A stretch of DNA of 64,000 bases from Escherichia coli (lineage in GTDB: Bacteria > Pseudomonadota > Gammaproteobacteria > Enterobacterales > Enterobacteriaceae): the NCBI RefSeq assembly GCF_009931435.1, contig NZ_CP043414.1. One strand, 5' to 3'. Of this stretch, positions 37,501 to 40,500 are shown piece after piece. Position numbers: made by a program. Position 1 is the first letter of the stretch. Every line of letters starts with the position of its first letter.

Positions 37501-40500
37501 TTACAATAGGTCTACATTTCTAATGCACTAACTTTTTGGAAACAATACTATAAGATCAAATTTATATGGTGGCGAAAATTAACTTCTTATCACGGCTTAC
37601 GCCGCTTTTATTCGTGTTCGCTCCTTTTTTTGCACAGTCAAATATGACTGTTTATCCTATGGCTGTTTCCATTAATAGCCTGGGTGAAGGCAACGTTCGC
37701 GTTATATCTAAAAGTAATGAAGTTCAGTATATTAAGGCGACAGTATTCCGTATCGATAATCCATCGACGCCTCAGGAAAATGAAGTTGAGATTAAATCCG
37801 GTGATGCAAATCATCTGGTTGTGATGCCACCCAAATTCGCCTTACCAGCCGGTAGTAGCAAAACCGTGCGCTTTGTCGCGATGGAACCAGAGCAAAAAGA
37901 GAAAAACTATCGCGTTAAATTTGAAGCGGTTCCCAGTATTGATGACGTTGCCACGGATAAAAAAGATCTCTCTATGCAGTTAACAGTTAATTTAATTTGG
38001 GGGATTGTTGTTAGTGTTCCACCTCAGCAACCTATTGCTAAGTTAGAAGTAAGCCCTGCCCAAAAATTATTAAATGCAGGGAATCAGCGCTTGAAAATTT
38101 TAACGATCGCTTATTGTAAAAATAATAGTAAAAATAATTGCAAGATACAGACCGTCAATAAAAACATTTTCCCTGGTCAGGAAAGAAGTTTAGAAGGCAT
38201 ATCTGGCTACGATAAAATCGTTGTCAAATATAATAACTGGATCACCAAGGACAATGGCGAGTTTGAACTGGCGGTTCATTAATTATCATTGTAATAAACA
38301 AAGGAATAGTAATGAAAAAGGTATTCGCAAAATCTCTTCTGGTCGCGGCAATGTTTTCCGTTGCAGGTTCTGCATTAGCAGTACAAAAAGATATCACTGT
38401 TACTGCCAATGTTGATGCTGCTCTGGATATGACTCAGACAGATAACAGCGCACTGCCGAAAGCAGTTGAAATGCAATATCTGCCGGGGCAGGGCCTGCAA
38501 TCTTACCAGTTAATGACCAAAATCTGGTCAAATGACACGACCAAAGACGTGAAAATGCAGTTAGTTTCTCCTGCACAACTGGTTCAAAGCCTGGACGCTA
38601 CTAAAGTTGTTCCGCTGACTGTAACCTGGGGCGGTGAAGAGATTAAAGCTGATGCGGCAACCACTTTTACTGCAACAAAAATCTTTGCTTCCGATGCGTT
38701 AACTAACGGTTCGCTGGCTAAACCACTGATGTTTGCTCAAGCCACCAAAGGTGTTCTGGAAACAGGTATTTACAGTGGCGTAGTCAGCATTTATCTGTCC
38801 CAGGATATCTAATCCTAATAACAGAATTAACATGTAATAAAGGGAGGAAATTCCTCCCTTCTTTTAACTATTTTAGTATTTATTATGGATTACAGGACTG
38901 CCATGGATAAAAAACTACTGGCTCTTTTGATCCTGGCGAGTATCAGCCCGGCAAAGGCAACATTAACAAAAATCCCCGCTGGTTTCGAGATTATTGCTCA
39001 AGGACAGCAGGAGTATATCGAGGTTTATTTTGCAGGGAAAAGTCTCGGTAAATACTATGCAATGGTTAATCTTGATACCATAACATTTCTGGACTCATCG
39101 AGTTTATACAGTAAACTGGAATTGAACACCGACGATCAAAAAATCGCACGTACAGTGAAAGAAAAACTATCGCAACCGTTAGCTCGCCATGGTGAACTGG
39201 CTTGTGGCTTTGTACGTACTGATTCAGGCTGTGGTTTTCTTAATACTGAGACGGTAGAAATAATCTTCAATGATGAGGAAAGTTCAGCAACGCTCTTTCT
39301 CAATCCGCAATGGAGTTCTGCGTTTGATACGAAATCATTGTATTTAAATCCTGACCAAAATACGGTTAACGCGTTTATACATCAGCAAGATATTAATGTG
39401 CTGGTACAGGACGATTACCAATCGTTGTCAATTCAAGGTAATGGTGCGCAGGGAATAACAGAAAATAGTTATATTGGCGCCCACTGGAATTTCAACGGTT
39501 ATGATGGTGATGATATCAGTGACAGTAATGCTGATGTCAGCGATCTCTATTATCGCTACGATTTTTTACGTCGTTATTATGTGCAGGCGGGGCGGATGGA
39601 CAACCGCACATTATTTAATGCACAAGGTGGTAACTTTACGTTTAACTTTCTGCCACTCGGTGCAATCGACGGAATGCGTATCGGGTCGACGCTCAGTTAT
39701 TTAAACCAGACGCAAAGCCAGCAGGGAACCCCGGTAATGGTTTTGCTTTCGCGCAATTCACGTGTTGATGCTTATCGTAATGAACAACTTTTGGGGTCGT
39801 TTTACCTCAATAGCGGTTCGCAATTTATTGATACCAATTCCTTTCCGCCAGGCAGTTACAGCGTGGCGTTAAAAGTCTATGAAAATAACCAACTCACCCG
39901 CACTGAGCTCGTGCCATTTACCAAAACCGGCGGTCTGACAGACGGAAATGCCCAGTGGTTTTTACAGGCGGGGAAAACCACATCTCAAGCTTCTGATGAT
40001 GAAAGTTCGGCTTATCAGCTGGGTGTGCGCCTGCCATTACATCCGCAATATGAGCTCTATGCAGGGCTGGCGAATGCAGATGATGTTAGTGCCTTCGAGT
40101 TAGGCAATAACTGGACAGCAGATTTAGGCGTGGCAGGGAATCTACTCATCAACGCCAGCGTGTTCCGTAACGATGATGGTGGCAAAGGTGATATGCAACA
40201 GGCTAACTGGAGTCAATCGGGATGGCCGACATTGGGCTTTTATCGTACCAACTCTGATGGTGATGTTTGTACAACCGACAACCGAGAAAGCTACAACGCC
40301 TTAAGCTGTTATGAAAGCATCTCCGCGACGATTTCACAGAATCTTGTAGGCTGGAACATGATGCTGGGTTATACCCGTACGCAAAATAACACGAATGACA
40401 ATCTGCGTTGGGACAAACAGCAGAGCTTTGAAAATAACTATCTTCGCCAGACGACGGCGCAAAGTATTTCCGAAACTTTACAACTCAGTGCTTCCCGCGC

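Follow-up and report, generated by a model that had tools for sequence, protein, structure and literature searches.

In this study, a stretch of 64,000 nt of Escherichia coli DNA (here called the window) was found to carry, in the gap between the major pilin and usher genes of a CS1-like fimbrial operon, an RNA hairpin followed by a U-rich tract, which probably serves the pilin message as a weak and leaky Rho-independent terminator at its 3' end. The hairpin has the structure of a terminator and is sense-oriented, and a hairpin at the pilin–usher junction is conserved throughout this fimbrial family; actual termination, its efficiency and any stabilizing effect are what we infer from this shape. 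On the best reading, the terminator hairpin may also protect the 3' end of the RNA. Many copies of the pilin subunit are needed per pilus, and excess pilin message generated via such hairpins is well known from fimbrial operons, where it is nothing out of the ordinary. In the CS1-like operon, transcription would start upstream of the chaperone gene, and a fraction of the polymerases would release their RNA at 38840-38867, while the remaining polymerases would read through into the usher and adhesin genes, which would be served by ribosome-binding sites of their own and would have no promoter of their own. Short transcripts, as well as decay intermediates of the long one, would then have the hairpin as their 3' end, where it would block 3'-to-5' exonucleases, with the outcome that pilin message would exceed usher and adhesin message.

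The operon (table 1) has the gene order chaperone, pilin, usher and tip adhesin and is located on the chromosome between exuR and exuT, where it constitutes an accessory insertion that is carried by ~1900 of 5426 complete E. coli genomes, i.e. about one-third. By this gene order, together with its domains (PF00345, PF04449, PF17271 with PF16967, and PF07434) and RefSeq names, it belongs to the alpha (class 5, CS1/CFA-I/Tcf/Cbl) chaperone–usher operons; the domains of the two genes flanking the hairpin (PF04449 and a TcfC/CooC-type usher) also bear out the initial annotation, which had taken these genes to encode the major pilin and the usher. The operon has been named 'CS1-like' in PMC2608844 and PMC6033998, with the latter giving its expression solely as fold changes between strain groups. 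Among the annotated neighbours of the operon there is no adjacent AraC-type activator gene. The hairpin that marks the end of the operon has a T-rich tail solely on the minus (exuT) strand.

Table 1. Genes of the CS1-like operon and sequence elements at its junctions (positions refer to the window).
Feature	Position	Strand	Basis or remark
Periplasmic chaperone gene, first in operon	37566..38282	+	PF00345, RefSeq
CS1-type major pilin gene, 166 aa	38312..38812	+	PF04449, E 4e-23; RefSeq
A-rich tract AATAAA	38836..38841	+	5' of G-C core, complementary to U tract
RNA hairpin AAGGGAGGA-AAT-TCCTCCCTT	38840..38860	+	9-bp perfect stem, 5 G-C pairs, 3-nt loop AAT
U-rich tract TTCTTTTAA	38859..38867	+	6/9 T after G-C core of stem
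AGGA, Shine-Dalgarno-like motif for usher start	38894..38897	+	sequence; inference
Usher gene, TcfC/CooC type, 894 aa from RefSeq start	38903..41587	+	PF17271+PF16967, RefSeq
CfaE/CblD-type tip adhesin gene, last in operon	41584..42660	+	PF07434, RefSeq; 4-nt overlap with usher stop
12-bp hairpin between adhesin stop and convergent exuT stop	42699..42726	.	marks operon end

The gap between the pilin and usher genes had been given as 72 nt, which corresponds to the first in-frame ATG of the usher at 38885. In a genome that is 99.8% identical, however, RefSeq lets the usher begin at the equivalent of 38903, and because this ATG is preceded, 6 nt upstream, by AGGA and opens a typical signal peptide, the length of the gap has to be corrected to 90 nt (38813-38902). 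A consensus scan found no promoter-like (sigma-70-like) site between 38312 and 38903. An internal usher promoter is thus improbable; the sole −10-like hexamer, TATTAT (38881-38886, found by inspection), has no −35 and, if it were used as a −10 element, would leave almost no leader for the usher message.

Within this gap, the stem-loop and T-rich tract that had initially been noticed are indeed present. agggaggaaattcctccct occupies 38841-38859, and one extra A-T pair at each end extends it to the full stem-loop 38840-38860, the 5' arm of which consists of purines only and the 3' arm of pyrimidines only. The hairpin begins 27 nt past the pilin stop (38812), a distance that leaves it clear of a terminating ribosome, and another 42 nt separate it from the usher start. 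With CTTTTAAC / CTTTTAACTATTTTAG downstream of it, it is reported by a terminator scan, and it has what defines an intrinsic terminator, i.e. a G-C-rich stem within the range of ~5-14 bp, a loop within that of 3-8 nt and a U-rich tract on the 3' side of the transcribed strand; upstream of the G-C core, five out of nine nucleotides are A. Lying in sense orientation past the major pilin gene and ahead of the assembly genes, it is placed as an intra-operon attenuator would be, and as a stable hairpin that would form the 3' end of a presumably long-lived segment it also has the form of a 3' stabilizer. The U tract, UUCUUUUAA, is short and interrupted, with a C being followed by four U and then by AA.

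The bare stem-loop has a folding energy of −13.4 kcal/mol, and the isolated 35-mer one of −14.1 kcal/mol (z = −2.75, with 3 of 200 shuffles folding equally well). For comparisons we relied on the strongest single perfect hairpin and its energy rather than on the minimum free energy of the whole gap, which discriminates poorly against shuffles and coding windows, with A/U-rich flanks and G-C-rich coding windows blurring the picture. A perfect hairpin this strong occurs in none of 100 dinucleotide shuffles of the gap and in none of 38 length-matched windows from the usher gene. On the plus strand of the window, perfect hairpins of ≤ −13 kcal/mol occur at 18 distinct sites, so that the prior chance of finding one of them in a 90-nt gap is only a few per cent. 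Terminator-like hairpins in the window range from −13.4 to about −25 kcal/mol, which places the pilin–usher hairpin at the weak end, and this low energy along with the interrupted U tract fits leakiness, i.e. partial rather than full termination would be expected. An Rfam 15 scan of 36000-44000 at E ≤ 1 gave no match at 38813-38902; the sole match in this range was a chance-level Phe_leader on the hairpin at the exuT end.

Within E. coli, ten alleles of a 401-nt stretch spanning the junction, which are 88-100% identical, were compared. All ten retain the T tract and a stem of 8-9 bp, which is paired in 98.4% of the cells across the alleles. Substitutions in the stem turn A-U into G-U or G-C into G-U, the top pair is changed from A-U to G-C in two alleles, and double-sided changes in the eight core pairs occur in none of the alleles examined. 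Such covariation within the species is weak evidence, because, with one arm consisting of purines and the other of pyrimidines, roughly one in two transitions yields a wobble pair and is tolerated; these arms also permit register slippage, and the covariation count was not taken as proof. The loop varies in both sequence and length (AAT, CAAGT, GUAG, CUAG, AAGUC, CUAGU, CUUGU and CUGGU). TTTTAAC is invariant in 10/10 alleles, with just the base before it being either C or A.

At the scale of the entire family, we compared 32 related loci, which are not independent and collapse to ~18 lineages; for the genome scan, the usher alignment was rebuilt from closer homologues, as an alignment of eight ushers was too divergent. 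A perfect hairpin of ≤ −10 kcal/mol is present in 28 of the 32 pilin–usher gaps, whereas only 5.8% of 1216 matched coding windows hold such a hairpin, and 16 of the ~18 lineages are hairpin-bearing. Among them are ETEC CS1 and CS14, Citrobacter, Lelliottia, Rahnella, Yokenella, Enterobacillus and Chimaeribacter as well as Edaphovirga, Rosenbergiella, Serratia, Erwinia, Pantoea and Enterobacter, and also CFA/I, whose bulged hairpin (−18.3 kcal/mol) is counted within the 16 lineages but not within the 28 perfect hairpins. In a control set that included Salmonella and Klebsiella oxytoca, 29/32 pilin–usher gaps were positive, compared with 2/32 chaperone–pilin junctions, and the same energy threshold was reached at 29/32 pilin–usher junctions versus 14/26 operon ends. 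The sequences of these hairpins are unrelated between lineages, and in the Citrobacter/Lelliottia/Salmonella/K. oxytoca clade pairing is 100%, with two compensatory double changes. On these comparisons, the hairpin appears to be under selection.

These data also bear on the idea that the structure operates in DNA, for instance as the operator of a dimeric regulator or a remnant of recombination or of a mobile element, or that it is a functionless chance palindrome. It is true that the near-perfect inverted repeat reads almost alike on both strands and that it resides in an accessory insertion, but an operator would conserve its sequence, whereas the stems differ completely between lineages with compensatory changes keeping the pairing and with the loop being free to vary. 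In addition, the T run is strand-specific. Chance is excluded by the frequency of 28/32 gaps compared with the 5.8% background. Overall, this reading is very improbable. A REP/BIME-type repeat was rejected, since the hairpin occurs at a single site in the window (with up to three mismatches allowed) and the junction region at a median of one place per genome.

The U tract is less general than the hairpin itself. On average, the nine nucleotides after the G-C core contain 5.3 T, compared with ~2.6 in the rest of the gaps, with 2.9 A being found upstream, and a sense-strand T run well above background follows the hairpin in 12 of the 16 hairpin-bearing lineages as well as in the window. By contrast, the hairpins of Yokenella-2, Rosenbergiella and Rahnella laticis (−16 to −18.5 kcal/mol) have just 1-2 T in the next nine nucleotides, and two plasmid lineages have no hairpin at all in the pilin–usher gap, which means that termination is not a universal requirement in this family.

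Another possibility is that the hairpin is a 3' stabilizer only. In this case, read-through would be near-complete, an endonuclease (e.g. RNase E) would cut the message, and rapid decay of its usher–adhesin part along with stalling of exonucleases at the hairpin would leave a long-lived pilin (or chaperone–pilin) RNA, i.e. selective processing and stabilization as in CFA/I and pap. This would agree with a hairpin that is near-universal at the junction and a U tract that is not, and there is precedent: PMC6090259 describes cfaB mRNA as exceeding cfaA and cfaCE despite a single promoter and calls this differential stability, citing Jordi 1993, and PMC4423207 includes CFA/I among its listed cases in which RNA is selectively processed and stabilized. 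Moreover, with the pilin gene being second after the chaperone gene, termination alone cannot raise pilin over chaperone message, for which this gene order would require a post-transcriptional step; the chaperone–pilin gap is a 29-nt spacer, A/U-rich, unstructured and without a hairpin, and at the family level this junction has a hairpin in 2/32 loci. On the other hand, a pure exonuclease barrier would not need the TTTTAAC that is invariant in the E. coli alleles examined, and sense-strand T runs well above background follow the hairpin both in the window and in 12/16 hairpin-bearing lineages. A role as stabilizer only is thus possible but rather unlikely, and the roles of terminator and stabilizer are compatible with each other.

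As to the original proposal that a partial terminator produces an excess of pilin transcript, a sense-oriented and terminator-shaped RNA hairpin that is kept at this junction family-wide, together with the literature on relatives, speaks in its favour, while termination as the origin of such an excess is less clear-cut, with the excess in CFA/I being credited to differential decay rather than attenuation and with the three lineages that have a hairpin but no U tract agreeing better with a stabilizer than with a terminator. Taken together, the comparative data suggest that the conserved requirement is a structured 3' end for the pilin mRNA, with termination being a frequent but dispensable addition: the hairpin is kept in ~16/18 lineages despite replacement of its sequence, it is much more regular than one past the last gene of the operon, and in a few lineages it is not accompanied by a U tract.

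A further aspect is the sequence of the arms. All E. coli alleles examined have a Shine-Dalgarno-like 5' arm, AAGGGAGG, together with a 3' arm, CCUCCC, that is similar to the anti-Shine-Dalgarno sequence of 16S rRNA; a very similar hairpin, AAAAGGAGGG...CCCUCCUUUUU, is found in the distantly related CFA/I operon, and that such arms are common to the chromosomal E. coli operon and CFA/I might not be a coincidence. The element could control translation of the usher, or it could be a ribosome-sensing conditional terminator, in which a 30S subunit on the 5' arm would block the hairpin and thus act as an antiterminator, with usher and adhesin transcription being tied to translational capacity. In a Yokenella homologue, a downstream repeat that contains the usher Shine-Dalgarno sequence offers the 3' arm an alternative pairing partner, which in the case of ribosome sensing would amount to a variant of this switch. 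However, the remaining 14 hairpin-bearing lineages have unrelated stems that are not Shine-Dalgarno-like, and in the window the Shine-Dalgarno-like arm is sequestered in a stable stem and has no start codon at working distance, with the usher's own AGGA being located 33 nt 3' of the hairpin, outside of it and not occluded by it. Both control of usher translation and the conditional terminator are therefore very improbable.

The leaky terminator, which we favour, is in line with what has been described for related operons. According to a general statement in PMC3373541, the expression of subunits increases when their genes are followed by Rho-independent stem-loops. cooBACD (CS1) has one promoter and one polycistronic message (PMC2579436), and in CFA/I a single promoter likewise yields a polycistronic message, with an excess of pilin mRNA (PMC6090259), CS1 and CFA/I being the only ones of these operons for which a single promoter has been shown; on a hairpin in the CS1-like operon, tcf or coo, nothing specific was found in the literature. 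For annotation and engineering, the hairpin would mark the probable end of a short pilin transcript in a little-studied operon, and it leads to the prediction that here the expression of the usher is uncoupled from that of the pilin. The comparison across lineages is of modest general value, with the current understanding of fimbrial gene regulation remaining unchanged.

Among known systems, the closest in fimbrial family, gene order and junction are the cfaB–cfaC stem-loop of CFA/I (Jordi et al. 1993, J Bacteriol 175:7976, as cited in PMC6090259, PMC4423207 and PMC5927463) and the cooA–cooC junction of CS1. Like the operon in the window, both have a hairpin and a T run 10-33 nt past the pilin stop, and the CFA/I hairpin also shares the Shine-Dalgarno-like purine/pyrimidine arms. 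Yet, their ushers are just 28-30% identical to that in the window, and apart from the CFA/I resemblance their hairpins cannot be aligned with the one described here. Moreover, both operons are plasmid-borne and activated by Rns/CfaD, whereas the operon in the window is chromosomal and located between exuR and exuT.

In the pap (P pilus) operon, the papA 3' terminator/stabilizer (Baga 1988; Bricker and Belasco 1999, both via PMC5927463) is a hairpin that immediately follows the gene for the major pilin, as is the case here; it defines and protects the 3' end of the abundant pilin mRNA, with the downstream assembly genes, served by the same promoter, being expressed at a lower level. The pap operon differs in belonging to the pi usher clade, in its pilin gene following the regulator gene papB rather than a chaperone gene, and in RNase E processing and a 5' stem-loop having been demonstrated, whereas in the window the pilin gene is not preceded by a 5' hairpin. 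Finally, in comparison to generic E. coli Rho-independent terminators, the hairpin in the window is intra-operonic, weaker than most terminator-like hairpins in these 64 kb and followed by an interrupted U tract, but it shares with them the G-C-rich stem, the short loop, the 3' U tract and 5' A tract, and the location just past a stop codon on the sense strand.

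The chaperone, major pilin, usher and tip adhesin genes listed in the table follow one another in the order of alpha (class 5, i.e. CS1/CFA-I-type) chaperone–usher fimbriae and lie on the E. coli chromosome with exuR on one side and exuT on the other, a locus that has been named 'CS1-like fimbriae' (PMC2608844, PMC6033998). Most of this operon is present in approximately 1900 of 5426 complete E. coli genomes, with alleles 86–99.8% identical to that of the window; as a whole (37271–42747), it is an accessory insertion between exuR and exuT. One copy is plasmid-borne (353-kb plasmid NZ_MG591698.1), and in a single genome, that of strain MEW, the usher is interrupted by an IS1 insertion. 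Some E. coli assemblies encode 1228–1234-aa proteins (P0002–P0004) in which usher and tip-adhesin domains are fused, presumably because a frameshift or the loss of a stop codon bridges the 4-nt overlap. The usher reading frame has two in-frame ATGs, at 38885 and 38903. Since RefSeq, via the equivalent position, chooses the second one, which is preceded by AGGA 6 nt upstream (38894–38897) and begins the signal peptide MDKKLLALLILASISPAKA, the pilin–usher gap is 90 nt long and not 72 nt, as had initially been annotated.

Features of the CS1-like operon and its hairpins in the window
Feature	Position	Strand	Basis or remark
PapD-like chaperone	37566-38282	+	ORF and domain search
CS1-type major pilin	38312-38812	+	PF04449
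Pilin–usher hairpin, AAGGGAGGA-AAT-TCCTCCCTT	38840-38860	+	sequence, terminator scan, folding
Tract 5' of hairpin, AATAAA		+	sequence
Tract 3' of hairpin, CTTTTAACTATTTTAG		+	sequence
TcfC/CooC-type usher	38903-41587	+	ORF; start from RefSeq
CfaE/CblD-type tip adhesin	41584-42660	+	ORF and domain search
12-bp hairpin, ACGAAGCCGCC-TGAACA-GGCGGCTTCGT	42699-42726	T-rich tail minus only	between adhesin stop (42660) and convergent exuT stop (42748)

Within this gap, the stem-loop with a T-rich tract proposed in the initial annotation is indeed found, by sequence, by a simple terminator scan and by folding. The string originally quoted lies at 38841–38859; one extra A-T pair on either side extends it to a perfect stem of 9 bp closed by a loop of 3 nt. 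This structure is separated from the pilin stop by 27 nt and from the usher start by 42 nt. As an isolated 35-mer it folds with −14.1 kcal/mol (z = −2.75), and in a 101-nt context it is part of the minimum-energy structure and of the centroid structure alike. No Rfam family matches at the hairpin, whose sequence is single-copy within the window. A perfect hairpin as stable as this one (−13.4 kcal/mol) occurs in none of 100 dinucleotide shuffles of the gap and in none of 38 length-matched windows of the usher gene. Eighteen distinct sites on the plus strand of the whole window reach −13 kcal/mol as perfect hairpins, so placement in this 90-nt gap by chance is unlikely, though possible.

All of ten E. 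coli alleles compared have a hairpin with a stem of 8–9 bp and an energy of −12.4 to −17.8 kcal/mol; five were folded individually and five were covered by a perfect-hairpin scan (−10.8 to −13.4 kcal/mol), with the window allele in both sets. The stem and the TTTTAAC behind it are retained, while the loop varies in sequence and length (AAT, CAAGT, GTAG, CTAG, AAGTC, CTAGT, CTTGT, CTGGT). In the register of the window, 98.4% of cells are paired, the three variable core pairs change to G-U only, and the top pair, A-U in the window, is replaced by G-C in two alleles. This conservation supports a selected structure, but weakly, because all-purine and all-pyrimidine arms tolerate about half of all transitions and none of the eight core pairs shows a double-sided change among these alleles.

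The decisive evidence for conservation of the hairpin comes from comparing junctions across the family, i.e. those of ETEC plasmids (CS1 pCoo, CFA/I and CS14), of plasmids from Serratia, Pantoea, E. fergusonii and Salmonella Bareilly, of 24 genome loci from a usher-profile search, and of one Salmonella and one Klebsiella oxytoca contig. A perfect hairpin of at least −10 kcal/mol in strength, typically −13 to −18.5 kcal/mol, starts 8–33 nt past the pilin stop in 28 of 32 pilin–usher gaps, including that of Edaphovirga (−17.0 kcal/mol as a perfect stem, −20.1 kcal/mol with a bulge); CFA/I has a bulged hairpin (−18.3 kcal/mol). The background is 5.8% of 1216 length-matched usher-coding windows. 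In the control set that adds Salmonella and K. oxytoca, 29/32 pilin–usher junctions, but only 2/32 chaperone–pilin junctions, reach −10 kcal/mol. The loci are not independent and collapse to approximately 18 lineages, in 16 of which the hairpin is present, and stem sequences are unrelated between lineages: structure and position are conserved, sequence is not. In the Citrobacter/Lelliottia/Salmonella/K. oxytoca clade, 11 core pairs are 100% paired although flanks and loop have diverged; two compensatory double changes replace C-G by U-A and A-U by G-C (equalled by 13 of 500 shuffles). Between the two paralogues of Enterobacillus, an A-U pair is exchanged for G-C. The exceptions are the plasmid lineages of E. 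fergusonii, together with related E. coli plasmids, and of S. Bareilly, which have no hairpin in gaps of 38–42 nt (L012, 2415–2452; L013, 2390–2431), and one ambiguous MAG locus. In L012 and L013 a strong SD (GGGAGGGAG or GAGGAGGGGGG) lies immediately 5' of the usher start.

What most of the family shares is a selected structure with a defined position and also orientation. The 9 nt past the G-C core contain a mean of 5.3 T per lineage (at least five in 12 of 16 lineages), compared with approximately 2.6 T per 9 nt in the rest of the gaps and a mean of 2.9 A in the 9 nt upstream of the core. The typical member is thus shaped like a sense-strand intrinsic terminator. A DNA-level operator, a repeated element or chance all fit poorly with a sequence that turns over with compensatory changes, with T runs specific to one strand, with a single copy in the window and with the background rates.

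Among the terminator-like hairpins in the window (−13.4 to about −25 kcal/mol) this one stands at the weak end, and its U tract is interrupted, which suggests that it is most likely a leaky intrinsic terminator. Any pilus needs usher and adhesin to be made; part of transcription would end at the hairpin, and these two genes would be reached by read-through. A consensus scan found no promoter-like site from pilin start to usher start. The related cooBACD genes are transcribed from one promoter as a single polycistronic mRNA (PMC2579436), and the cfa operon is polycistronic, yet cfaB mRNA exceeds cfaA and cfaCE mRNA, according to PMC6090259 (citing Jordi 1993). The hairpin would, by analogy, also block 3'-to-5' exonucleases, a role described for papA (PMC5927463) and stated for fimbrial operons in general (PMC3373541). 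As the main alternative, it could act as a stabiliser only, in a scheme of processing and decay that involves little genuine termination. The CFA/I literature points to differential decay (PMC6090259, PMC4423207), and in Yokenella-2, Rosenbergiella and Rahnella laticis the hairpin is just as strong but lacks a U tract. Moreover, the pilin gene is second after the chaperone gene, so that termination by itself could not lift pilin above chaperone, and the 29-nt chaperone–pilin spacer, A/U-rich and unstructured, is a plausible endonuclease entry site. Against this stands the T run, strongly enriched family-wide and invariant within the E. coli alleles examined. The two roles are compatible. Of the partial terminator for excess pilin proposed initially, the class of device is borne out by structure, position and family conservation, whereas attenuation itself is a reading with stabilisation as its rival.

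SD-like and anti-SD-like arms common to the window and CFA/I hint, as a minor alternative, at a role in translation or ribosome sensing, but the other lineages lend it no support and the hairpin does not include the SD of the usher itself. The CFA/I hairpin in the cfaB–cfaC gap (L008, 2394–2457; AAAAGGAGGGGGUAUG...CAUCCCUCCUUUUU) has these same arms, the ushers being only approximately 28% identical; an ATG 5 nt past its SD-like arm begins an ORF of 16 codons, which extends across the 3' arm and has an 11-nt overlap with the start of cfaC, in a different frame. In the second alpha-fimbrial operon of Yokenella regensburgei (L028, 2926–2970), which lacks a U tract, the 3' arm CCCTCTGATGT can pair with the upstream ACATCAGAGGG or, in an alternative fold of −19.4 kcal/mol, with a direct repeat further downstream, ACATCAGAGG, in which the likely usher SD is located (GAGG, 8 nt before the ATG). 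The two structures may form a switch that couples the 3' end of the pilin message to translation of the usher.

At the distal end of the window operon, the 12-bp hairpin has its T-rich tail on the minus strand only and therefore looks like the exuT terminator that also closes the fimbrial operon; it probably explains a weak overlapping Rfam Phe_leader match (42666–42730, E = 0.41). Across L014–L039, in the 125 nt past the adhesin stop, the last-gene hairpin is less regular than the post-pilin one: it is the stronger of the two in only 13 of 26 operons, and at many operon ends no hairpin surpasses −8 kcal/mol.

In the literature searched, we found no description of the hairpin in the chromosomal CS1-like operon. 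The kind of element, however, is textbook: the window hairpin has the tested structural and positional features of both known classes, being alike in shape to intrinsic terminators and in position to the post-pilin stem-loops of CFA/I, CS1 and pap.
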